Positions 7,968 through 45,848 are shown, numbered from the stretch's first letter. The stretch: 64,000 nucleotides of DNA from a virus (IMGVR_UViG_3300045988_052707:15837-79836); one strand, 5' to 3'. Notes: generated by a model from the letters alone, not told the origin. A program made the numbers and translations.

Positions 7968-8609
7968 TTACTTGCGACCTAGACCATTATAGAAATCAAG
8001 TATTGCATTCTCTTTACGAAGCCAAGTAGCCTGTTCTTTAGCCATATCAAGAATAGTACGACTAATAGATTCTTCTTCTACTTGCTCTTTAACTAACATA
8101 CCTTCATCCTTATCCTCTCCATTCAACCATTGGAATGTAGCCCAATCACTCTCTTTTTGAGCTTGGTCTACAATCTTATTAATACCACGAGTAGTCTCAA
8201 TCTCCCTATCTACTGTGGCAGCAAAGGGCATGACTCTATCAGTGATTTCAACATTAATGGCTGGAACAGGCGGATATTGGAACAGAGCATCGTTAGTGGT
8301 TAGATATTCAAATATCCAAGAATGATGCAAATATTCTTCCTTAGCACGACCTCTCCAGTAAATACCTAGCTTTGGTAAACCCTCTACTTCAAAGTAATTG
8401 GCAAAGGTCATATACAGAGCATGGTTGGCAAGTTCGGCTGACATCTGTTTTACCAACATCTCAACCATTACAGTTGATAGTGGGCAAACACGTCTAGACT
8501 TATCAATCACCTGCTCTGTATACTTCATAGTAGGTTCAGCGCCTACGGTTTGAACTCCTTCGCTTGTCTTCTCCTGTATTGGATTTCCGTCTTTGTCTAG
8601 CATTCTCAC
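7968..8609 (-). CDS. ferritin-like iron-storage protein
   Basis: Helix-by-helix similarity to bacterial ferritin FtnA (LxxQMxxELxxxxxY, WRGRAKEEYLHHSWIFEYL ~ RRHAQEEMTHMQRLFDYL, FQWLNGE ~ LQWYVSEQ); true start probably an internal Met. Confidence 0.55.
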   Translation of the reverse strand: MRMLDKDGNPIQEKTSEGVQTVGAEPTMKYTEQVIDKSRRVCPLSTVMVEMLVKQMSAELANHALYMTFANYFEVEGLPKLGIYWRGRAKEEYLHHSWIFEYLTTNDALFQYPPVPAINVEITDRVMPFAATVDREIETTRGINKIVDQAQKESDWATFQWLNGEDKDEGMLVKEQVEEESISRTILDMAKEQATWLRKENAILDFYNGLGRK

Positions 8610-9804: not shown

Positions 9805-10017
9805 TTAATCTGATTGTTCTTCTAGCACCTTACCTATTAACCACAGATACAAAAATGGCGATATGACTGGACATGTCATCCACCAACCTACATCTTCTTC
9901 TACAACTTCCCAGAAGTATTCTTCATCTAGGTCATAATATGCAAGCATGTAGTTTAGTACAATGTTTAATAAGTAAGATACACCATATAGTGCAAGTACT
10001 ATTAATATTACAATCAC
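9805..10017 (-). CDS. small hydrophobic/membrane protein
   Basis: 70-aa ORF with TM-like N-terminus. Confidence 0.35.
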   Translation of the reverse strand: MIVILIVLALYGVSYLLNIVLNYMLAYYDLDEEYFWEVVEEDVGWWMTCPVISPFLYLWLIGKVLEEQSD

Positions 10018-10490
10018 AATTTCTCTTTCTCTACTCTAAATTGACAACATAGTTTCTGCAACTCGAGTATGACGGGTTCTAAGGTACTAACGCCCTTAAC
10101 CAACACTGCTCGTTGGTCTACCGTCCTTCTGGCTAAATGGGATTGGACGCTGGAAACAGCATCTTCATATCTCTTCTTAATAAGGTCTCTGTTCTCGAAA
10201 TACTTGGGAATCTTACCATGTAGATATATTAAAGCATCTAGTGCCTTAATAAGTTCCTTATGACTCATAGAAGTAGATATTCTGTCATAAATAAATACAT
10301 ATCTATCAACTCCGTCTGGAATGATATTTATATATTTATCAGTTTCAGTTCCTTCTCTTCCTACATGGTCTGCTAACCTCACAGTAGCAGAGAATCCATT
10401 TAATGTATAGTACTCCGAATCTCCCTTATAATTAGTAGAAGTAAACCCCTTCCTCTTTAGCCACGCTTTTAGTTTGCTCAACCCTCTCAT
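10014..10490 (-). CDS. hypothetical protein
   Basis: 158-aa ORF. Confidence 0.5.
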   Translation of the reverse strand: MRGLSKLKAWLKRKGFTSTNYKGDSEYYTLNGFSATVRLADHVGREGTETDKYINIIPDGVDRYVFIYDRISTSMSHKELIKALDALIYLHGKIPKYFENRDLIKKRYEDAVSSVQSHLARRTVDQRAVLVKGVSTLEPVILELQKLCCQFRVEKEKL

Positions 10491-10737
10491 CTTGTTTAAT
10501 CTTCTTTTCCACCTTTCGAAATATCAAGTCTCCGTCAAGTGGACATCTACACTCCATAGTACAGTCACTGGCTTTAAAGTAACAGCCAAAGCACGCGCAA
10601 CCACTGTCAACGATTTCTACCGGACTGCCGTTTACAGTGATAAGGTCTCCTGCCTGTAAAATGGGTATTAATTCATTGTCTTCGTACTTAAATTTCTGCA
10701 TATCTAAAGTTAAAAAAGAAGGGCCAAACCCAGACAA
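10432..10737 (-). CDS. Cys-rich small protein
   Basis: CACFGCYFKASDCTMECRC cysteine cluster. Confidence 0.4.
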   Translation of the reverse strand: MSGFGPSFLTLDMQKFKYEDNELIPILQAGDLITVNGSPVEIVDSGCACFGCYFKASDCTMECRCPLDGDLIFRKVEKKIKQDERVEQTKSVAKEEGVYFY

Positions 10738-10947
10738 TCACTAGAGTAGACCTTACCTCATTAGAAGTAAAGAATAATCTAATAACTAATCTGAATTTGA
10801 CCCTAAACGGCAGTACGAATATCGTTCTGCGCGATTAGCACTACATTAAATATAACGTAGCCTAAAGTCCGTTATCATAAACTGATAACAATAATGCCTA
10901 TACTTGGCATTAGGTGTGTTGCTAGGAGCAACGAAGAAGAGCCTACA

Positions 10948-10957
10948 CCCCCCCCCC
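10948..10957. repeat. C10 homopolymer tract in a 270-nt intergenic region upstream of gene starting at 10737
   Basis: Read directly: gcctacaCCCCCCCCCCagtg. Confidence 0.9.
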
Positions 10958-11010
10958 AGTGATATTCTGGCTGGAATGTCTATTCCATAACCTATCACCA
11001 TACATAAGAA

Positions 11011-11379
11011 CTATTCAAAGTAGTCTGGGAACTTATCTTTTAATATTTCAGATATGTCCACGCCAGTCAGTTCAGCCATAGATAATTCTTCCAACATTGC
11101 GTCTTCAGAATCGTCCACACTACCGTCAGCGCTATCAATAAGATTGAGCAGTAATTGAGCTTTCTCATCAGTCAGCCCGTCTTGCGCCCATTTACTTACT
11201 ACTTCTGCAAAGAATTCATCGAACTCATAAGAAGTTTGCTCATCTTCATCAGCGATTGCATTCTTCTTGGCAAACAGTTCTTTGATGTCTTCATCTGTAA
11301 TAGTTCCGGCTTTATCATAAGCCGCGTTCAATGACTCTATAAGAGAGTCTTGTTCATCGAATGTCATTGTTGTTAACAA
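11011..11379 (-). CDS. highly acidic protein (D/E-rich), unknown function
   Basis: 122-aa ORF, strongly acidic composition. Confidence 0.5.
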   Translation of the reverse strand: MLTTMTFDEQDSLIESLNAAYDKAGTITDEDIKELFAKKNAIADEDEQTSYEFDEFFAEVVSKWAQDGLTDEKAQLLLNLIDSADGSVDDSEDAMLEELSMAELTGVDISEILKDKFPDYFE

Positions 11380-11532
11380 TTAATGTTAAGAACATGTGAA
11401 TAGTCTATTCACACCAACCCTCAAGGGCTTAAGATAATGTATGGTAATCAAATCACCATTACAGCAGTGGGGACTGCTTAAACAGGCATTTCACTCTCAA
11501 TTATGCCTGTGGTTATGTTAGAATAAAGAAAT

Positions 11533-11895
11533 TCACTTCTTCCAGGATATGAATAGATATTCTCCAACTAAGCCAGGATATCCTTCTTTATCAATAACCT
11601 TAACGAAGAATCGTTTATCTTCGTAGTATTTAAGGATTTCATCCTTGGCTTTAGCTACATCATCATTCAAATCCATAACAAGACTAAAGTAATTGTTCTC
11701 ACTCTTAGCCTTAATAAGTTGGTCAGTAGTATCTAGAAACCTCTTAATTAGAGTTTCTTGTGTCACCACTTCATTGTAAGTGGCAACTGAATATGCCTCG
11801 TCCGCATTCATAGATTCACCTTCCAACAATTTACCAAAATTAAAGATATTCTTCATAATAACTAATAATTGGTTTGTGGTCCAGACGAGATTCAA
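11533..11895 (-). CDS. hypothetical protein
   Basis: 120-aa ORF. Confidence 0.5.
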   Translation of the reverse strand: MNLVWTTNQLLVIMKNIFNFGKLLEGESMNADEAYSVATYNEVVTQETLIKRFLDTTDQLIKAKSENNYFSLVMDLNDDVAKAKDEILKYYEDKRFFVKVIDKEGYPGLVGEYLFISWKK

Positions 11896-13769: not shown

Positions 13770-14708
13770 TTATAGCATTAAATTGTTAATACGTTTATAT
13801 TCTTCAAACACCTTGTCCTCTGATTCTTCTCCCCACATACTGTGAATGAGAACACCGTAAGCACAAGGCTGGTACACAATAGGGTCTACTGCCTTCTTAG
13901 TGATTGTAACCTCTGGATTGTTTAATTGACCAGGAGGGCAAGCTACAAATAGCTCATTTCTACCTATCTTAACAGCATCAAAGGAAACTATGTTAGGATA
14001 GCTAAAACCCTTTACATTAGCAGGAAGACCAGGATTCTTGTTAACTATACTGGACAGCCTGAGTGTGCCTTCTATATCAGGACCAACAACTATATGATTA
14101 TGTGATTCTATGTATTTCTTCAGATTGTTCAACATAGTTTCGCTGTCATTATATCCATAGTTGATACCTGTAACATAATAATATGCTCCATTAGTACACT
14201 CCAACCCCAAATCAGAGAACATTGGTCCTTCACCATTAAGCTTGCGCTTAACTTTTATGATTTCTCTGATGTTGCGGTCAGGAATTACTCCAGTGTATTG
14301 TTTTAGTAGACCTTTGACAAGTTTATACTTCTTACAAACATCATCAAATTGTTTAGAGCCAACCAGAAGAGTACTCTCTCCGAATACCTCTCTTGCACGC
14401 TTTACGAAATTAAATAGGTTCTTAGCGCGCATGGCATCCAGAGCTATCTGATTATATTCAGATATTTTAGCTTGCAATAACCTAGCATTCTTCGAGTTCT
14501 CTAGTCCAGCGTTAACCAGTGTGTTGTATTCTCTTACTAACGTATCTCTGCCAGGGATATCAACTGGTGTCTTAGAAACAGAACGTAGATATTCCTCCAT
14601 ACATAAAGCAAGAGCCATAGCTATGTTGGACTGAACAGTCACCACTGGCATGTCAACCACTTCTGGAGTTATAACTTCAGAATCATTGCGTTTTAGAAAT
14701 CTAAACAT
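13770..14708 (-). CDS. member A of a three-gene paralog family (C-terminal I-x-S-x-W-G-E-E motif)
   Basis: C-terminus DPIVYQPCAYGVLIHSMWGEESEDKVFEEY aligns with ORFs 16725..17591 and 22326..23177. Confidence 0.6.
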   Translation of the reverse strand: MFRFLKRNDSEVITPEVVDMPVVTVQSNIAMALALCMEEYLRSVSKTPVDIPGRDTLVREYNTLVNAGLENSKNARLLQAKISEYNQIALDAMRAKNLFNFVKRAREVFGESTLLVGSKQFDDVCKKYKLVKGLLKQYTGVIPDRNIREIIKVKRKLNGEGPMFSDLGLECTNGAYYYVTGINYGYNDSETMLNNLKKYIESHNHIVVGPDIEGTLRLSSIVNKNPGLPANVKGFSYPNIVSFDAVKIGRNELFVACPPGQLNNPEVTITKKAVDPIVYQPCAYGVLIHSMWGEESEDKVFEEYKRINNLML

Positions 14709-16724: not shown

Positions 16725-17591
16725 TTATAAAGGTTTAATATTGTCGAATATATTGTCTTCGGCTTCTACTCCCCATTTAGAGTGAATCATTACCCCTATT
16801 GGAGTTACTTGAAATACAAATGGGTCATTATTGATAGGAATAATCTTCCTTTCCGGAACTGTAAACTGCATCGTTTCATTCATTTCTTCAATAGGAGCGG
16901 CAATGAATAAGTCAGCACTGCTACATTCTTTTGAATCAGCAATGTTCACGTCATGTGCCTTGGCTTTATTAAGGATATGAAAGAATGGATATGCATTCAT
17001 TCTAGCCTTATTTCTACTCAAATACATAAGTCCAATATGGGAAGGTTCCTGCCTAATGAAGTACCTTCCAACCGGATAGGACATGCTATCAATAGGCATA
17101 GGGTGAGTAGCAACTTGCATACCAGTAACATACCGTAAAGGTGAACCGTTTCCGCTATAGTTAACATACTCATTTGCTTCAAGTGCTTGAGCAGTGGCCA
17201 TTACCTTAGAGATTTCATCAATGTTCTCGTCAGGTACAGAACCTTTATAAGCTGATAGTCTTCCAACAACTAATCCATACTTAACATTCAGATTAATGAA
17301 ATCCTCCTCCTTAAGTATCAATGAGCCAGGGAAATGTCTTTGCAAAAAGCTATAACATTTTAAGACTTTAAGGTCCTCTTCCGAAGTGATAGCATCACCT
17401 ACTTCTTTAGAATTAGTAAATCCTAAAGCTTTCAGTTTGACAGCCTTATCAACTAGTTGATGATTCGGATTCAGACCCTTAATAGTCTTCATGTACTCTA
17501 CAGCCATTAGAGTATAAGCTAATTGCACTTCTTGGGCTGTGAATCTCTTTGTGCCTACAGACGTATCTGTAGAAGGACTAAAATTGTTCAT
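16725..17591 (-). CDS. member B of the three-gene paralog family
   Basis: C-terminus DPFVFQVTPIGVMIHSKWGVEAEDNIFDNI; shared mid-region motifs (LKALGF / YKGSVPDENIDEI). Confidence 0.6.
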   Translation of the reverse strand: MNNFSPSTDTSVGTKRFTAQEVQLAYTLMAVEYMKTIKGLNPNHQLVDKAVKLKALGFTNSKEVGDAITSEEDLKVLKCYSFLQRHFPGSLILKEEDFINLNVKYGLVVGRLSAYKGSVPDENIDEISKVMATAQALEANEYVNYSGNGSPLRYVTGMQVATHPMPIDSMSYPVGRYFIRQEPSHIGLMYLSRNKARMNAYPFFHILNKAKAHDVNIADSKECSSADLFIAAPIEEMNETMQFTVPERKIIPINNDPFVFQVTPIGVMIHSKWGVEAEDNIFDNIKPL

Positions 17592-17711: not shown

Positions 17712-18185
17712 TTATCCTATTTCGTTACTAGCATTATAAGCAAGCTTGTCGGCTTCCTTATTATGTTCATCACTTGCGTGACCTTTACACCACTCAACAG
17801 ACACTACTTTATGCCTGTTCACAGCCTTATCAAGACGTTCCCACAAATCAGTATTGGCTTTCCTCTTCCACCCTTTAGTAAGAGTTCCTACAATATACAT
17901 AGAATCTGTTACTATTGTAATTTCAGAAGGTTCCTTTATGGATTCCAGGGCAACTATGACAGCCATTTGCTCCATTCGCTGATTGGTGCTGTTCTTATAC
18001 ATCTTACTGTATTGGAATATCTTCTTGTCCTCCTCTAAAATGACAAAGCCTATTCCCCCTTGATTTCTCGCAGGAGAATAGGCACCATCACAGTATATTC
18101 TGTACTTATGCGTCGGCATTAGGATTCTCAACAAAATCCTCATCATCCTCATCTTCTTCGGTTTCGGATATGACATCCTCATCAA
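17712..18185 (-). CDS. rnhA: ribonuclease H (RNase HI family); likely starts at internal Met
   Basis: IYCDGAYSP..NQGGIGFVI, MEQMAVIVALE, TDSMYIV, WCKGHASDEHNKEADKLA match RNase H catalytic motifs. Confidence 0.7.
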   Translation of the reverse strand: MMRMSYPKPKKMRMMRILLRILMPTHKYRIYCDGAYSPARNQGGIGFVILEEDKKIFQYSKMYKNSTNQRMEQMAVIVALESIKEPSEITIVTDSMYIVGTLTKGWKRKANTDLWERLDKAVNRHKVVSVEWCKGHASDEHNKEADKLAYNASNEIG

Positions 18186-22325: not shown

Positions 22326-23177
22326 TTATCGGTATTTATCGAACATGCTGTCTGATGCTTCTTCTCCCCACATAGACACGATAACAATACCTACTTTGGT
22401 AGCCCTAAATACTATTGGGTCTTCTAACCTTCTTTTACGGTCTTCTTCAGCTTTAGAGAAGATTTCTATGCGAATATTATTCTCCATAGTATCATAAGGC
22501 GCTGCAATTAGCCAAGTGTTATGGTCTAAATATGAGGTGCCAAGATGTAGGTAATCTTCCTCCTTATAACTTCCACCTATAGACCTCATGTACTGATAAC
22601 CACGGTCAATACCTTTGAATACAAATGGGAATCTAGAGAAATACTCAACAAGCCGTTTGGTCATGTCCTTAGACATTCTTGAATCTATTCTCGCAGCTTC
22701 AACCCAACTGACGTAGTTAAGATTTAAAGAGTTCAAAGCGTTAGAAGCCTTTGCTATTTGTGACACATTCTCACTTGGAATGAATCCGCTGAAGGTCGAT
22801 ATTGGACCACAATACAAATTGTACTTCTTCAGAATTGCAAAGAAATCCTCGTAAGTTACAACCAGTGCATCAGGATACGATTCTTTAATCCAGGATGTTA
22901 TTTCGTTAACCTTCTTCAGGTCTAATTTCTCTGGACCTAAAGCTGACTTATACTTCTTAGACTCGAGAATAGTCCTAAGGGTATCTGCATTCTTAGTTCC
23001 ACCCAGACCTGCTGCTTCCAACTTATCAAGCTCCTCTTTGATTTGCTCGGAATTGTCAAAGTCTTGATTGCCTTCTACGTACTTCTTATAGTACTCCATA
23101 GATGCTGTTACTAAGGCTAAACGTAACGCATCTGCACTCAATTTCTCCATACTATGATAAATGTTCTTTAATATCAA
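22326..23177 (-). CDS. member C of the three-gene paralog family
   Basis: C-terminus EDPIVFRATKVGIVIVSMWGEEASDSMFDKYR; LEAAGLGGTKNADTL and FSGFIPSENVSQI align to paralogs A/B. Confidence 0.6.
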   Translation of the reverse strand: MILKNIYHSMEKLSADALRLALVTASMEYYKKYVEGNQDFDNSEQIKEELDKLEAAGLGGTKNADTLRTILESKKYKSALGPEKLDLKKVNEITSWIKESYPDALVVTYEDFFAILKKYNLYCGPISTFSGFIPSENVSQIAKASNALNSLNLNYVSWVEAARIDSRMSKDMTKRLVEYFSRFPFVFKGIDRGYQYMRSIGGSYKEEDYLHLGTSYLDHNTWLIAAPYDTMENNIRIEIFSKAEEDRKRRLEDPIVFRATKVGIVIVSMWGEEASDSMFDKYR

Positions 23178-24094: not shown

Positions 24095-24141
24095 TTAGTT
24101 GTTAATAAAAGGAGAGCGAGATTACTCCCGCCCTCCAAGGT

Positions 24142-25599
24142 TTATTTGTTGTCCTTCTTCTCCGTAGAATAGTCCTTACGGTCGAGTTCCCACTGATACT
24201 CACACATCTGAGTGATTGCTTCAAGCTTCTCTGTACCCAGAACGAGTTTGAGAGCATTTACCAATCTTTCAGCCGGAGTTTCCACAACAGCTTTCTTGGA
24301 TGCGAGTCCAAGTTGACGTTGATAAGATTCAACGCTAGCTTTGATATGGAACGATGTTACATGGGTTTCTTCTGTAAAGATGAGTTTGGATTTGGTTGAT
24401 TCAACGATTTCAGCCATAAATGCCGGAGCAATTTCAGCTTCTTGAATGTAGTTACATACTTCACTCAAATCATCGTCGATTGTATATCCTTCTTCAGCGG
24501 TGAAGGTAGAACGGATGAATTTCTCCGCAGTTTCAGCGTCCAGGCAGTCCATAGTAATCACAGAACCAATTCTCTTACCTCTCAAGAAGGTAGGTTCAAT
24601 CAATTCAATGTGATTAGTAGTGAACAAGGTGATTACGTTCATATCTTTGGTATCACCACCGTCCAGAGTATTCAGGATGTCTTGCATTGCAGCATCTCTG
24701 TTACCTCTAGTTACTTGGTCAATATCTTCAACAAATACGACAACACCATGACCCGAACGGTCAACAACTTTACACATGCGCAGAGTTTCTGCAAGAAGAG
24801 AAGGATTCTTCAAATACACGAATGACCAGCCGTTCGTTACAGCATCTTTAGCCAGCTTAAATGCCAGCAAGGTCTTACCTGTACCATATTTACCTTCCAG
24901 CAAACAACCGTACTTCAATGGAATACCTTTAGCCAGACATTTCTCTGGATACAAGATTCTTGAACGTAGCGGTTGCAATTCAAATTCAGTCTTCTTAGAA
25001 AGAACCATGAATTGTTTCTCAATGCCGGCAAGCGTCATGATAGTAGGTTCAGACAGATTGCTGATTTCCAGTGCTTGATTCTTGTAGATAGATTCTGATG
25101 CCAACAGCTCTTTAGTTCTGTCAACAATATCATCAATCAATGACTGATATTTGAACTGGCATTGTCCTTTAATAAGGAGTAAATGACGGTCATTGTCATA
25201 GTTGATGTTGATTTCAGAATCTTCTCCCAATTCTTCAAGGCTGATTTTACCAAACGGAACCTTGGTACGAGAACCGTCTGCCAGAACAACGTCTACGGTA
25301 TCAATATTGCTGTTTCCAGAAGGACTGTTATCCTCCTTACTAACGGCAGAACCGAAGATTTCATTGATTGCTCTGTTCAACTGATATACACCGTCCGGTT
25401 TCCAACAAAGCAGCGAGTATTTGAAACTTGCCATTTTCTTGGACTGTTTGATTTCACCTTCGATGAATCCCAGAGCATCAGCATACTTCACATTGCTTTG
25501 GAGCACTTCAATCATTCTCTGTTTCTGAGTTTCCTCGTACTTGTTAACTCTCTGCTTAATAGCAGCTGTAGTTCCTTGCGGAATAATGTTCTTTGCCAT
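24142..25599 (-). CDS. AAA+ family ATPase (classic AAA, CDC48/FtsH-like P-loop)
   Basis: Walker A GKYGTGKTLLAFKLAK, Walker B VVVFVEDID, followed by sensor region; 250-aa unique N-domain. Confidence 0.7.
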   Translation of the reverse strand: MAKNIIPQGTTAAIKQRVNKYEETQKQRMIEVLQSNVKYADALGFIEGEIKQSKKMASFKYSLLCWKPDGVYQLNRAINEIFGSAVSKEDNSPSGNSNIDTVDVVLADGSRTKVPFGKISLEELGEDSEININYDNDRHLLLIKGQCQFKYQSLIDDIVDRTKELLASESIYKNQALEISNLSEPTIMTLAGIEKQFMVLSKKTEFELQPLRSRILYPEKCLAKGIPLKYGCLLEGKYGTGKTLLAFKLAKDAVTNGWSFVYLKNPSLLAETLRMCKVVDRSGHGVVVFVEDIDQVTRGNRDAAMQDILNTLDGGDTKDMNVITLFTTNHIELIEPTFLRGKRIGSVITMDCLDAETAEKFIRSTFTAEEGYTIDDDLSEVCNYIQEAEIAPAFMAEIVESTKSKLIFTEETHVTSFHIKASVESYQRQLGLASKKAVVETPAERLVNALKLVLGTEKLEAITQMCEYQWELDRKDYSTEKKDNK

Positions 25600-25602
25600 T
25601 AC

Positions 25603-25875
25603 TTAATTAGGTTTATTAATCTTATTTACTTCTTTAATGATTGCCTCACAATTCTCTCTTGTTGTAGTTAAACAACCAAGTTGAATAATAGAACCGTCTT
25701 GAGTGATAGTCAGGTTCTTCTCTTCGATTGTTTCCCTACATAGACCTCCTCTGATAATTCTTTTAATGAGTGGAAAGGGTAATATAGTATTCTTACAGAA
25801 TATCATATTCTTGCCTTCCACATAAATGACATCGTAGCCGTCAATGCTACCTACTACCTTACTCATTCGATTCAA
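25603..25875 (-). CDS. hypothetical protein
   Basis: 90-aa ORF. Confidence 0.4.
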   Translation of the reverse strand: MNRMSKVVGSIDGYDVIYVEGKNMIFCKNTILPFPLIKRIIRGGLCRETIEEKNLTITQDGSIIQLGCLTTTRENCEAIIKEVNKINKPN

Positions 25876-25887
25876 CTATTAACTGTG

Positions 25888-25961
25888 TGGGCCCGGCCGG
25901 ACTTGAACCGACAACCTCCTGATTATGAGTCAGTTTCTCTAACCGATTGAGATACGGGCCC
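25888..25961 (-). tRNA. tRNA-Met/fMet/Ile2 (anticodon CAT), copy 2
   Basis: Acceptor GGGCCCG/CGGGCCC, anticodon loop CTCATAA, T-arm GTCGG-TTCAAGT-CCGGC. Confidence 0.55.
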
Positions 25962-26056
25962 CGAACGCCCATGTTTACTCACAATTAACAGTTCTCAAAG
26001 AGTAGTGTTGTTAGTGACTTCATGATAAATTCTATTTTAACTGAAATAATTAGTAG

Positions 26057-26128
26057 TTGGGCTACCAGGATTCGAACCTGGGCTACAAGAGCCAAAACCT
26101 TGTGTGACTACCACTACACCATAGCCCA
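26057..26128 (-). tRNA. tRNA-Gln (anticodon TTG)
   Basis: Acceptor TGGGCTA/TAGCCCA, anticodon arm CAAGG-TTTTGGC-TCTTG, T-arm CCAGG-TTCGAAT-CCTGG. Confidence 0.55.
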
Positions 26129-26149
26129 GTAAAAGGAGTCCGAAGACTC

Positions 26150-27217
26150 CTAAACTAACTTATCGAATATCATGGGCTGTATCGACATCCATAGATTCGC
26201 TAGCATTTCTTGCTCTGCGTCAGATGCCTCATCCCAATGTGATACGTACAATTTCTCCGTTCGTTCATTCCTATAAGGAACTTTAAATGAACGGTTAATG
26301 CGTACACTGTGTGCGAATAGGTCTTTGTCGAAATCAATAGCCCTAAGCGTCTTCTGGAAATCGTTGAACTTATTATTAGGGTCATCGACATCCCTAACAG
26401 ACATTCCAGAAGGAAATGGGCCATTACCATGCCTTGTTATATAAGGACGAGTTACATAACAAGTTTGGATTTCTTTACGTATACCTGCTTTCCGCAACAG
26501 CTCGTAAGCGTTTTGTGAAGTTGTATTAGACGGAGTACAATAAGGCATTATGCCGAATCTTTGGTCAAGCAATATTCCCTGTGAACCTTCAAACACTAGG
26601 TTATCATAATTCAACAAGCAATCTTCATTAACCGTACCTGTATGTAAGAAATAAGCATGTGCTAACCTACACCAGTTGTCTAGGTCTATCGAAGGATATT
26701 TACTAGACATGTTGTAATAGTTATCCACTATGGCATTTAGTTTCTCACGCAGTATGTAAGGATTCATACAATCTACAACTGTTAAGCTGTATCCTGCCTT
26801 AACTCGGTCCAAACAAGCTTTAAACCCTGTACCTACAGTACCATGTCGTAAGTTCTCTTCGTTATTAACTTGGGAATAGACATCGAAGGGAATTACAACT
26901 TGGCAGTGAGGGTGATACTGAACAATGGGACGAACTCCCATTTTAGCTAAGTCTGCACCCTCTAACATAGAGGTAATTGGGTCTACAGTACAGTATTCGG
27001 ACCAATACGTCGGCACTCCAAGTAAGGTTCCGCTGCCAAAGTTACTAAAGGTGTGCATCATGTCTCCATGCTTTACAGTATGTCCTACTTGATGTCCACC
27101 ACTAAACCTGACTACTAACACAGACTCTCGCTTACCTATGTACTTGTTACATAAGTTGTGAACTGTCTGTCCCTTACCTTCGTCTCCAAAGAATGTTCCT
27201 AATACAATACTAATCAT
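26150..27217 (-). CDS. adenylosuccinate synthetase (PurA) family enzyme, short form; candidate PurZ-like (2-aminoadenine/Z-base pathway) enzyme
   Basis: N-terminal P-loop IVLGTFFGDEGKGQ (PurA GDEGKGK), VVRFSGGHQVGHT (PurA RYQGGHNAGHT), GTVGTGF, FEGSQGILLD...PSNTTS, TRHGNGPFP; only 355 aa and lacks the C-terminal guanine-specificity region of canonical PurA (about 430 aa). Confidence 0.6.
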   Translation of the reverse strand: MISIVLGTFFGDEGKGQTVHNLCNKYIGKRESVLVVRFSGGHQVGHTVKHGDMMHTFSNFGSGTLLGVPTYWSEYCTVDPITSMLEGADLAKMGVRPIVQYHPHCQVVIPFDVYSQVNNEENLRHGTVGTGFKACLDRVKAGYSLTVVDCMNPYILREKLNAIVDNYYNMSSKYPSIDLDNWCRLAHAYFLHTGTVNEDCLLNYDNLVFEGSQGILLDQRFGIMPYCTPSNTTSQNAYELLRKAGIRKEIQTCYVTRPYITRHGNGPFPSGMSVRDVDDPNNKFNDFQKTLRAIDFDKDLFAHSVRINRSFKVPYRNERTEKLYVSHWDEASDAEQEMLANLWMSIQPMIFDKLV

Positions 27218-27223
27218 TTCAGT

Positions 27224-28156
27224 TTAATAAAATTTGTCATTACTATCAGACGGCACATCTTGCCATTCCTGACTAACAGAAGCACTAGGAGCTAAGCCTT
27301 CAGTAGGCTCCTCATAGTTCTCTTTAATTGCGGTGACAATCACCTTGTCTACTTCTCCAGATGCACATGTCAATACATTCTGTCCAAGTAAAGTCTTCCA
27401 AGATTCAGCAACCCTTGAGCCATGACTGGCATTAGTAATGTGAATGTGGAATACATGGTACTGTTCCTTTGCTTTGTCAAGAGCTTCTTGACAAGTAATG
27501 GTTTTAGCACCTTTTTGATACCCTAGAACACGTTCTAAGTAACATCCCTCTACCTTATCGAGATTTGGTTCATCTCCAATAGTAAATAAGAATCCCTTAG
27601 TGTGTCTTTCAAACCAGGAATCAGTTTCAGTATGATAACCCGCTACGATGTGAGATAGTAGATAGCTTTCGCCTCTATTACCTCCTCCTCCACCTTCAAT
27701 CACGAACGATTGTAAAGTGTCAAGAATTTTAGCTGTATCAGACTCAAACTGCCCAATTTGAATTGGATATCGGTCATAAACGTGGTCCCCAACTGCCATA
27801 AACATGATTTGTGGGTCACGCACACCTAGTTGAATGAGAGAGTCCATAATCTTAGGGAATTGGTCTCTAATCATTTCATAAGGTGTGTCCATCATTGAAC
27901 CAGTAACGTCTAGAGCAATGATTATCGGAGTAGAGAAAGGATGTTCTTTAGAATCACGAGATTCACGAACACCCACGTTAACCATTTCTTGCCTTATCTG
28001 CGTGTTATACTGCCTAACATTGTTGTTAAGCGATGCAGCAGTATTACATGCATTAATGGCATGGCTACTAAAGAGTTCATCCCTAGTGGAGGTATATAAA
28101 CCCCTACTGCTGGCCTCTACATCATAAGCAATTCTAGAATAACTACCTGCTCCCAT
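27224..28156 (-). CDS. von Willebrand factor A (vWA) domain protein
   Basis: MIDAS motif IIIALDVTGSM, downstream T and D residues, Gly-rich GGGGGNRGESY loop. Confidence 0.65.
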   Translation of the reverse strand: MGAGSYSRIAYDVEASSRGLYTSTRDELFSSHAINACNTAASLNNNVRQYNTQIRQEMVNVGVRESRDSKEHPFSTPIIIALDVTGSMMDTPYEMIRDQFPKIMDSLIQLGVRDPQIMFMAVGDHVYDRYPIQIGQFESDTAKILDTLQSFVIEGGGGGNRGESYLLSHIVAGYHTETDSWFERHTKGFLFTIGDEPNLDKVEGCYLERVLGYQKGAKTITCQEALDKAKEQYHVFHIHITNASHGSRVAESWKTLLGQNVLTCASGEVDKVIVTAIKENYEEPTEGLAPSASVSQEWQDVPSDSNDKFY

Positions 28157-28159
28157 AAA

Positions 28160-28540
28160 TTACTCATTTACAATTGCAGCAGCGTCATCTTTCACGTCAT
28201 CCAAATTAATGGATTCTGATGCATCAGCGGGAAATTCTTCTGCATCGACTTGCATAGCTAGAGCAAGTTCAATCTTTGCAACACGCAGTTTACGTGCCAA
28301 TTCATGTCTCGTTCTTACCCATTCAGCCGGATTCAGTCCTTCTCCCGGATTCAAAGAGTCTCTTGATTTAACAGCCAGGTCGTTGTGTTTGTTGATTTCT
28401 CCCTGAATGCGAAGTACTTTCAACTTACAATCCTGAACGAATCTGTCTTCCTCGATTTTAGCCAATTCATACAGATTCTGCGCTCTTGCATCAAGTACAC
28501 TTTGTCCACTCTTACTTAATTTCTCTTTAAAACTGCTCAT
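28160..28540 (-). CDS. coiled-coil protein
   Basis: 126-aa ORF with heptad-like K/E/L pattern. Confidence 0.45.
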   Translation of the reverse strand: MSSFKEKLSKSGQSVLDARAQNLYELAKIEEDRFVQDCKLKVLRIQGEINKHNDLAVKSRDSLNPGEGLNPAEWVRTRHELARKLRVAKIELALAMQVDAEEFPADASESINLDDVKDDAAAIVNE

Positions 28541-38695: not shown

Positions 38696-38767
38696 TGCCC
38701 CATGTTGGACTCGAACCAACGCCATACAAGTTTAGAATTTGCTCTTCTACCACTGAAGTAATGGGGC
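38696..38767 (-). tRNA. suppressor-type tRNA, anticodon CTA (would decode amber UAG)
   Basis: Acceptor GCCCCAT/ATGGGGC, D-arm CTTC-AGTGGTA-GAAG, anticodon arm GCAAA-TTCTAAA-CTTGT (U33, A37; one A-C mismatch at loop-closing pair), T-arm GTTGG-TTCGAGT-CCAAC; 4 nt from the preceding CAT tRNA. Confidence 0.55.
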
Positions 38768-45755: not shown

Positions 45756-45836
45756 CTTTAAAATGATTGGGAGAGGATGGGAGATTCGAACTCCCACTAC
45801 TAGTTGTAACTAGCCTTCTACCATTAAACTAATCCT
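45756..45836 (-). tRNA. tRNA with encoded CCA; anticodon ambiguous (6-nt loop TTACAA between palindromic CTAG stems: TAC/Val or ACA)
   Basis: Acceptor AGAGGAT/ATCCTCT + discriminator C + CCA, T-arm GGGAG-TTCGAAT-CTCCC; Val is the only amino acid otherwise missing from the array. Confidence 0.45.
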
Positions 45837-45848
45837 CTCTTGGCATTA

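Follow-up and report, generated by a model that had tools for sequence, protein, structure and literature searches.

We analysed a 64,000-nt stretch of viral DNA (IMGVR_UViG_3300045988_052707:15837-79836; hereafter, the window) and found that two unrelated conserved gene sets adjoin on its minus strand. Set 1 runs from 28540 to 26150 and encodes a small helical protein of 126 residues (o126, 28160-28540), a 310-residue protein with a von Willebrand factor A (vWA) fold (27224-28156) and a divergent 355-residue member of the PurA (adenylosuccinate synthetase) family, which we refer to as the PurA-like enzyme (26150-27217). Set 2 runs from 25875 to 24142 and consists of a 90-residue protein (s90, 25603-25875) and a classic AAA ATPase of 485 residues (24142-25599). 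We are highly confident that these sets are two independent units and that the first is a triad of vWA protein, PurA-like enzyme and adaptor. As our best overall explanation, advanced with moderate confidence, set 1 would be a non-canonical PurA-type unit that aids adenylate or NAD+ pools.

The window derives from a large, tRNA-rich phage (30 tRNAs predicted by ARAGORN). No near-identical DNA relative of this region was found in a phage database, and close relatives are numerous among metagenomic viral contigs of 90-270 kb. For the comparisons below we used 80 viral loci fetched via the vWA protein; 39 diverse viral loci for partner counts; a reverse sample of 78 viral loci fetched via the AAA protein (26 close, 52 with AAA identity below 85%); and 80 bacterial chromosomal loci, with at least 567 loci confirmed among bacterial species representatives. 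Individual loci are denoted by L and a number.

The vWA and PurA-like genes form a fixed pair

The PurA-like gene lies immediately 3' of the vWA gene, on the same strand, in all 82 viral loci with downstream DNA, down to 31-38% identity. We observed the same order in each of the three isolate lineages, represented by Vibrio phage Va1, Rhizobium phage RHph_Y65 and the Bxz1-type Mycobacterium phage Rizal (3/3), in two further jumbo-phage contigs, and in 79/80 bacterial chromosomal loci. The bacterial carriers belong to Bacteroidota, Actinobacteria, Clostridia and Proteobacteria and include Flavobacterium, Chryseobacterium, Cellulophaga, Tenacibaculum, Micromonospora, Actinoplanes, Streptomyces, Nocardia, Nakamurella, Clostridium, Oscillospiraceae, Dyella and Hyphomicrobiaceae, among others. 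In a curated phage collection, the vWA protein matched 220 records and the PurA-like enzyme 238 (Mycobacterium, 201/202; Rhizobium, 10/10; Vibrio, 6/6), with the surplus of PurA-like matches falling mostly in bacterial-looking records. Because identity between lineages is just 31-45%, recent common descent does not explain this adjacency. As the two genes are adjacent and co-oriented in essentially every phage and bacterial locus found, we take the vWA protein and the PurA-family gene to be linked in function.

The stop codon of the vWA gene and the start codon of the PurA-like gene frequently overlap, and the two genes are often translationally coupled. In the window, the vWA gene ends in TAA and the PurA-like start follows two codons on in the same reading frame (27218-27226); read-through of this stop by an amber-suppressor tRNA was considered and rejected, as the stop is TAA. 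No natural vWA-PurA fusion was present among the best 150 of the 1845 clusters of the vWA family. In L053, a single 576-residue open reading frame (ORF; 10001-11731) joins vWA residues 1-247 to PurA-like residues 14-330 and lacks the start of the P-loop; it probably reflects a deletion or an assembly error and not a natural fusion.

Housekeeping genes (rho, feoB, glnD and the acetyl-CoA synthetase gene acs) flank the bacterial unit, and these flanks rule out a prophage or defence-island origin of the bacterial copies. No defence-system model in PADLOC matched the vWA protein, the PurA-like enzyme or o126. The pair sits inside tRNA arrays in gut-phage lineages, as it does in the window; association with tRNAs was rejected as the defining link of the pair, since ~14/33 diverse loci have no tRNA within 10 kb.

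A third gene directly upstream of the pair

In all-against-all ORF clustering, the gene directly 5' of the vWA gene was o126 in 31 of 39 diverse viral loci and in 31/80 bacterial loci, the latter mostly from Flavobacteriia and other Bacteroidota. The o126 family is helical, ~115 residues long, and carries a conserved DLSP..SL loop. We detected no relatives of it in Pfam, PHROG, NCBIfam, PADLOC or the PDB, profile searches included.

An alternative partner occupies the o126 position in 41/80 bacterial loci, from Actinobacteria, Clostridia and Proteobacteria. This protein, exemplified by the product of 6969-7976 in L139, combines an N-terminal J-domain containing the invariant HPD motif with a kinase-fold body in which HGA takes the place of HRD; because the catalytic Asp of HRD is replaced, we refer to it as a J-domain pseudokinase. 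Its profile matches DnaJ J-domains at 2e-7 and Ser/Thr kinases at 1e-8, and Pfam models for DnaJ and Pkinase were found in 8/10 and 6/10 members, respectively. Gp250 of Mycobacterium phage Rizal (L004 4652-5782), labelled 'kinase' in its record, is also a J-domain pseudokinase. Profile comparison revealed no homology between o126 and the J-domain pseudokinase.

The PurA-like enzyme is a distinct relative of PurA

The PurA-like enzyme scores 120.7 bits against PF00709 (cut-off 27) and falls far below both NCBIfam PurA equivalog models (TIGR00184, 92.7 vs 395.6 bits; NF002223, 100.7 vs 402 bits). Bacterial members of the family, at 115-158 bits, are also below the PurA equivalog cut-offs. The closest solved relatives are bona fide PurA proteins, such as that of Helicobacter pylori (7pvo, 7e-22). 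The copy in the window lacks a C-terminal segment of ~25 residues.

To describe the active site, we counted residues over 148 unique family sequences in Escherichia coli PurA numbering. The P-loop reads GDEGKG (27170-27187 in the window), and the catalytic positions Asp13 (146/148), Lys16 (148/148), His41 (148/148) and Gln224 (146/148) are retained, together with Thr239 (144/148) and the guanine-specifying Asp333 (139/148). The positions that contact the other substrates are remodelled. Thr300, Thr301, Arg303 and Arg305, which we take from E. coli PurA structures to be the L-aspartate ligands, are respectively aromatic (Phe, Tyr or Trp in 143/148), Gln (146/148), deleted (148/148) and Leu or Phe (143-148/148 for the aspartate-ligand replacements as a group), such that the TTGRRRR aspartate loop of PurA has become a family-specific [FYW]-Q-[GK]-x-[LF]-[RK] loop. 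The ligands of the 5'-phosphate of inosine monophosphate (IMP) in E. coli PurA are Asn38, Thr129, Thr239 and Arg143, the last supplied by the partner subunit; three of these four positions are changed, with Gln in place of Asn38 (147/148), Cys or Val in place of Thr129 (141/148) and no conservation at Arg143, and Thr239 alone is kept. In addition, Val273 is His in 146/148 sequences.

Judged by these comparisons, the PurA-like enzyme belongs to a distinct and apparently catalytically intact paralogue family that is neither a PurA equivalog nor PurZ. The pattern of kept and altered residues suggests that GTP-dependent activation is retained and that at least one substrate differs from those of PurA.

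The first-pass annotation of this DNA had called the gene PurZ-like, that is, akin to the phage enzymes of 2-aminoadenine synthesis, and this label does not hold. The protein scores 22.2 bits against the NCBIfam PurZ model NF038379 (cut-off 300), no PurZ chain appears among its solved relatives below E = 0.001, and PurZ of phage phiVC8 aligns with it over 34 residues only (E = 0.005). All 147 phage PurZ and PurZ0 proteins carry Ser at the position of the catalytic Asp13 (PMC12884076), which the PurA-like family keeps, and reversion of this Ser to Asp in PurZ abolishes substrate selectivity (bioRxiv 10.1101/2025.10.22.683976).

The vWA protein carries many conserved residues

The partner of the PurA-like enzyme has a Rossmann-like vWA fold with a DxTxS variant of the metal-ion-dependent adhesion site (MIDAS), formed by D83, T85 and S87 (D83-V-T-G-S87), which are present in 146-147 of 147 unique sequences. 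T176 (144/147), which we assign as the probable MIDAS Thr, and D195 (147/147) are also conserved. Across the same sequences, the segments D83-V-T-G-S-M, G123-D124, Q136-F-E138, T176, D179 and G194-D195-E196 are 94-100% conserved, as is a glycine-rich loop, E154-GGGGG-[NQ]..E163-S-Y165, in which the window protein has N at the variable position. The invariant polar residues of this family far exceed the needs of a simple adhesion-type vWA domain. These values are to be read with the caveat that the family was partly selected via the MIDAS pattern, which is present in 161/163 loci.

The same 161/163 loci encode a vWA protein that starts with Met-Gly and has Gly or Thr at position 4 and an aromatic residue at position 6, a feature that extends over at least four phyla at 33-40% overall identity. 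A structure model predicts that the first 60 residues pack on the domain. No Pfam or NCBIfam vWA model matched the protein at E <= 0.01, and none of 120 homologues carries a precomputed Pfam domain. The family comprises 1845 clusters at 50% identity (E <= 0.001), the best 150 of which are all single-domain proteins of ~190-410 residues.

The AAA ATPase belongs to an independent gene set

The vWA, PurA-family and AAA genes had been read as a three-gene module in the first-pass annotation, which placed all three ORFs, their motifs and two tRNAs in one co-oriented cluster. The genes, motifs and tRNAs are indeed present and co-oriented, and the link between the vWA and PurA-family genes is borne out; the membership of the AAA gene is not. 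Among the viral loci fetched via the vWA protein, the AAA gene is restricted to the closest relatives (vWA identity at least 70%) and to L050, where it lies 6 kb off. It was not found in the vWA/PurA-like loci of Va1, the Rhizobium phage and Rizal, nor near the bacterial genes (0/80 vWA loci, 0/79 vWA-PurA pairs). In the reverse sample, the three genes are co-oriented and close in 25/26 of the closest relatives of the window, whereas just 4/52 loci with AAA identity below 85% have vWA and PurA genes within 10 kb of the AAA gene, 5-8 kb away and on one side or the other. Further homologues of the ATPase, from N4-like and huge phages among others, lack a vWA or PurA gene alongside; those of Erwinia phage Frozen, Delftia phage PhiW-14, Stenotrophomonas phage BUCTxx99 and a 462-kb uncultured phage are surrounded by replication genes. 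Thus, when co-conservation of the three genes across relatives is taken as the measure of the module, the AAA gene falls outside it.

The ATPase has a conserved companion of its own. The s90 gene lies directly 5' of the AAA gene in 25/26 close loci and 38/52 more distant ones, and s90 has no family match in Pfam, PHROG or PADLOC. A 92-residue ORF occupies the position of s90 in the 462-kb uncultured phage. We conclude that set 2 travels independently of set 1.

By sequence, the ATPase is a classic AAA protein. PF00004 is its sole Pfam match above a curated cut-off (52 bits, cut-off 21.2); weaker, sub-threshold matches are to further families of P-loop NTPases, and no MoxR-type model appears among the matches. 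The protein contains Walker A (GKYGTGKT), Walker B (VVVFVEDID) and a second-region FLRGKR motif with arginines R340 and R343, and its nearest solved relatives in the PDB are the D2 ring of p97/Cdc48 and proteasomal Rpt subunits (6e-14). NCBIfam returned only weak matches to PAN, CDC48 and FtsH, and PADLOC only weak IetA-like ones. The protein is a member of the phage family phrog_10440 and consists of a single AAA module preceded by ~220 residues with no assigned fold. An AlphaFold2 model was of low quality (pLDDT 40.7, pTM 0.26, with usable homologues of at least 87% identity only).

Bacterial copies lie among genes of NAD+ and ADP-ribose metabolism

An NrtR-type regulator, composed of a Nudix domain and an NrtR winged helix, is encoded within ~2 kb of the unit in 63/80 bacterial loci, mostly 5' and on the same strand. 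In Actinobacteria, Clostridia and Proteobacteria the genes follow the compact order NrtR, J-domain pseudokinase, vWA, PurA-like. In Flavobacterium, a longer co-oriented row reads NrtR, Prs-like phosphoribosyltransferase, in some cases one further gene, o126, vWA and PurA-like, and continues with NADAR, ADP-ribosylglycohydrolase, Tpt1/KptA, a metallophosphatase and Nampt.

Related genes also adjoin the unit at several phage loci. NADAR lies just 5' of the unit in phage Va1, and Prs-like and Nampt genes lie directly 5' of it in L079; a Nampt gene is present at L070, a Nudix gene at L071, and NMNAT/Nudix and phosphoribosyltransferase genes at the Rhizobium phage locus. A Prs-like (Adps) and Nampt-like (Namat) gene pair is the annotation signature of the phage pathway NARP1 (bioRxiv 10.1101/2024.02.11.579819).

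A proposed role for the vWA/PurA-like unit

From gene linkage, folds, residue conservation and genomic context we infer a catalytic activity, substrates, a physical complex and a biological role as follows. We propose joint action of three proteins: the PurA-like enzyme, the vWA protein and either o126 or the J-domain pseudokinase. In this scheme, the 6-oxo group of a hypoxanthine-type nucleotide would be phosphorylated by the PurA-like enzyme at the expense of GTP and then exchanged for an amine, and at least one of the enzyme's substrates would not come from the ordinary pair of IMP and L-aspartate. The vWA protein would be a dedicated partner that regulates the enzyme, binds substrate or completes the active site, and it may stand in for the second PurA subunit that normally gives Arg143. 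The third protein would serve as an adaptor, the J-domain pseudokinase version of which would recruit DnaK. With ADP-ribose as the signal of NAD+ breakdown, the unit may help to replenish pools of adenine nucleotides or NAD+-related compounds, and in a phage it would have an auxiliary or counter-defence function. Recovery of these pools is the most likely role because the bacterial copies adjoin NrtR and genes for rebuilding NAD+ and processing ADP-ribose; taken by itself, we hold this assignment tentatively, at somewhat less than even odds.

A more specific form of this proposal is possible, though improbable, in which a hetero-complex of the vWA protein with the PurA-like enzyme, controlled by ADP-ribose through NrtR, performs PurA-type chemistry on a non-canonical pair of substrates. 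In one version, a hypoxanthine nucleotide would be ligated via C6 to the N-terminal glycine of the vWA protein as a covalent protein-nucleotide tag; in the other, a hypoxanthine-containing dinucleotide would be turned back into a molecule of the NAD+ or ADP-ribose type. Either version, if true, would add a new enzymatic reaction and a new player to the conflict between phages and bacteria over NAD+.

Several observations weigh against our overall explanation. Pfam scans of the 64-kb window detected no NrtR, Nampt, Prs-like, NADAR, Tpt1 or ADP-ribosylglycohydrolase genes, and about half of the diverse viral loci have no NAD gene within 10 kb; it is thus mainly the bacterial context that supports the NAD link. 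There, the NrtR neighbourhood is a matter of co-location, short of demonstrated co-regulation. In the lineage of the window, set 1 and the AAA block may be co-transcribed, because a scan for terminator-like hairpins gave a single weak one between them (5-bp stem, 25850-25834, within the s90 gene) and a strong one after the AAA gene, and a lineage-specific functional link may exist. Finally, the PurA catalytic core is intact across the PurA-like family, which leaves some probability to an ordinary adenylosuccinate synthetase with an unusual aspartate pocket.

That last reading is the strongest competitor, although we still consider it unlikely: the gene would be a plain auxiliary metabolic gene for a working adenylosuccinate synthetase that raises AMP during infection, with the vWA protein as only a regulator or stabiliser. 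It accords with the strong PF00709 match, the true PurA proteins among the nearest solved relatives, the conserved Asp13, Lys16, His41, Gln224 and Asp333, and the SEA-PHAGES annotation 'PurA-like adenylosuccinate synthetase', and a supply of AMP would agree with the NAD+-rebuilding context. It is at odds with the replacement or deletion of all four L-aspartate ligands, with the alteration of three of the four IMP 5'-phosphate ligands and the new invariant residues found there, with scores 3-4 fold under every PurA equivalog cut-off, and with an obligatory pairing to a vWA protein and a third partner that is foreign to PurA. Bacteria that bear the pair would, moreover, be expected to own a normal purA as well. 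The remodelled aspartate pocket, in which an aromatic residue, Gln and His take the place of the carboxylate ligands, could instead fit a covalent tag in which the enzyme joins a purine nucleotide via C6 to the N-terminal glycine of the vWA protein or to a protein that the vWA protein presents. The Met-Gly start shared across at least four phyla and the constant adjacency and frequent translational coupling of the genes agree with such a tag. We nevertheless regard it as improbable, since it rests purely on inference, the conserved N-terminus is perhaps structural given that the first 60 residues are modelled to pack on the domain, no natural fusion occurs among the best 150 clusters of the family (the L053 ORF being probably a deletion), and we know of no such nucleotide-to-glycine chemistry.

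The other two alternatives fare worse. An AAA/vWA machine of the MoxR type, acting as a chaperone or in metal insertion and serving a nucleotide-modification enzyme, was the analogy offered in the first-pass annotation (MoxR/RavA-ViaA, CobS/CobT, NorQ/NorD), and such partnerships are common in established biology. The co-orientation and closeness of the genes in the window and 25/26 closest relatives, and the single weak hairpin between them followed by a strong one after the AAA gene, speak for it. The analogy fails, however, because the ATPase belongs to the classic clade (PF00004; p97/PAN) rather than to MoxR, CobS or NorQ and is not co-conserved with the vWA protein: apart from L050, it is absent below ~70% vWA identity, and it is missing from all 79 bacterial pairs and from Va1, the Rhizobium phage and Rizal. 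It also has its own conserved 90-residue partner, and we consider the machine very improbable. Least credible of all, to the point of being nearly dismissed, is that the enzyme is PurZ or PurZ0 and the phage DNA contains 2-aminoadenine for adenine. This reading draws on the PurZ-type name of the matched PHROG 1211, which is repeated in RefSeq copies of related phages; it conflicts with the GDEGKG P-loop and Asp13, with the PurZ model score and with the 34-residue alignment to phiVC8 PurZ. PurZ is accompanied by enzymes that clear dATP or dGTP (DatZ, MazZ/DUF550 or DutZ/DmtZ) and often by DpoZ. With phiVC8 proteins as tblastn queries, we found no homologue of DatZ or DpoZ in the 64-kb window, which is only part of the genome.

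Other features of the window and related phages

Two tRNA genes intervene between set 1 and set 2 on the minus strand and belong to neither, tRNA-Gln (TTG, 26056-26128) and tRNA-Met (CAT, 25887-25961), both called by ARAGORN. The strong terminator-like hairpin directly 3' of the AAA gene (24111-24136, minus strand) has an 11-bp stem with 7 G-C pairs and a T run and was identified by a consensus scan only. The tRNA array of the window (11876-45838) includes a tRNA with anticodon CTA (38695-38767), which would read amber codons, and L057 has one too, which points to possible reassignment or suppression of stop codons in late genes. Two opposite-strand calls overlap (30819-30895, plus; 30834-30922, minus), and the call at 45768-45838 has a two-base anticodon; each of these two cases probably includes at least one artefactual call.

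Bxz1-type phages share both the vWA/PurA-like unit and large tRNA sets with the window phage. Genes for tmRNA lie near the unit in L057 (15249-15590), L061 (4592-5100) and L062 (9163-9671), and Thg1 and RlaP genes in L249. In these phages, genes for RNA repair and translation tend to gather in the same part of the genome. The 564-residue product of 41085-42779 matches phrog_850 ('RNA-binding protein') and no Pfam model; it may be comparable to the Ro-like protein that Bxz1-type phages are known to encode.

Among the remaining genes, 31010-32971 encodes a 653-residue protein whose N-terminal SPFH/Band_7 (flotillin-like) domain gives way to ~400 residues of repeats rich in Ala, Glu and Lys. An unrelated 250-kb phage contig has a Band_7 gene as well (L248 15177-16025), ~4 kb away from its vWA/PurA-like pair. 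Three paralogous ORFs of ~280-310 residues (13770-14708, 16725-17591 and 22326-23177) form one similarity cluster with no Pfam or PHROG match, and the 670-residue product of 14708-16720 matches phrog_1735, a strongly conserved family, end to end (873 bits). A ferritin-like protein and RNase H are encoded at 7968-8609 and 17712-18185, respectively.

Significance and comparison with known systems

A survey of phage PF00709 proteins counted 481, of which 147 were PurZ or PurZ0, and did not discuss the remainder (PMC12884076). By subtraction from these counts, about two thirds of the ~480 phage PurA homologues are not PurZ, and the PurZ-type names that such homologues often bear in databases wrongly imply a 2-aminoadenine genome. 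Our analysis corrects this annotation error for the family described here, removes a false AAA/vWA pairing, and identifies a PurA-like paralogue family with a vWA/MIDAS protein and a third protein as fixed partners. In at least 567 bacterial species representatives, the vWA/PurA-like unit forms a core-chromosome operon next to NrtR. The unit is a candidate for a new step in purine or NAD+ metabolism, and in phages possibly for counter-defence against NAD+-depleting immunity. Bxz1-type mycobacteriophages, Flavobacterium johnsoniae and Micromonospora offer tractable models. We found no description of the vWA/PurA-like/third-partner unit in the open-access literature, which is not proof of its absence.

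The PurA-like enzyme shares with PurA of E. coli and H. pylori the PF00709 fold, the GTP P-loop GDEGKG, Asp13, His41, Gln224, Thr239 and Asp333; it differs in lying far under the equivalog cut-offs, in the replacement of the aspartate loop, Asn38, Thr129 and Arg143, and in always being paired with a vWA protein. Like PurZ and PurZ0 of Z-genome phages, it is a short (~340-360 residues), phage-borne PurA paralogue, but it keeps Asp13, fails the PurZ model, has no DatZ, MazZ or DpoZ neighbours within the 64 kb and forms a separate sequence group, such that tblastn with the window protein reaches no PurZ phages. In contrast to the ATPases of MoxR/RavA-ViaA, CobS-CobT, NorQ-NorD and BchI-BchD, the neighbouring ATPase is a classic AAA protein that is not co-conserved with the vWA gene. 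With the classic AAA unfoldases (p97/Cdc48, PAN/Rpt, FtsH) this ATPase shares Walker A, Walker B and the second-region arginines R340 and R343, and it departs from them in its single module, its N-terminal ~220 residues of no assigned fold and its dedicated 90-residue partner.

NrtR-regulated NAD+ salvage operons and NARP1 resemble the bacterial and some phage units in the NrtR, Prs-like and Nampt genes that adjoin the latter. They differ from the window, in which none of these genes was detected, and the accounts of NARP1, NARP2 and NARP3 that we consulted mention no PurA-like or vWA component. A parallel to the bacterial neighbourhoods is found in Iyer et al. (2022), who predicted Nudix- or WYL-regulated systems centred on ADP-ribosylglycohydrolase, sometimes with a vWA 'peptide-binding chaperone' (PMC9503650, section 3.8). 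By that description, both bring together a Nudix transcription factor, an ADP-ribosylglycohydrolase, NADAR, a calcineurin-like phosphatase and a vWA protein in one neighbourhood; a PurA-family enzyme, J-domain pseudokinase and small helical partner are not part of the systems described there. Set against these systems, the three-gene unit is widespread and apparently undescribed, and it combines known kinds of protein around a remodelled PurA active site.

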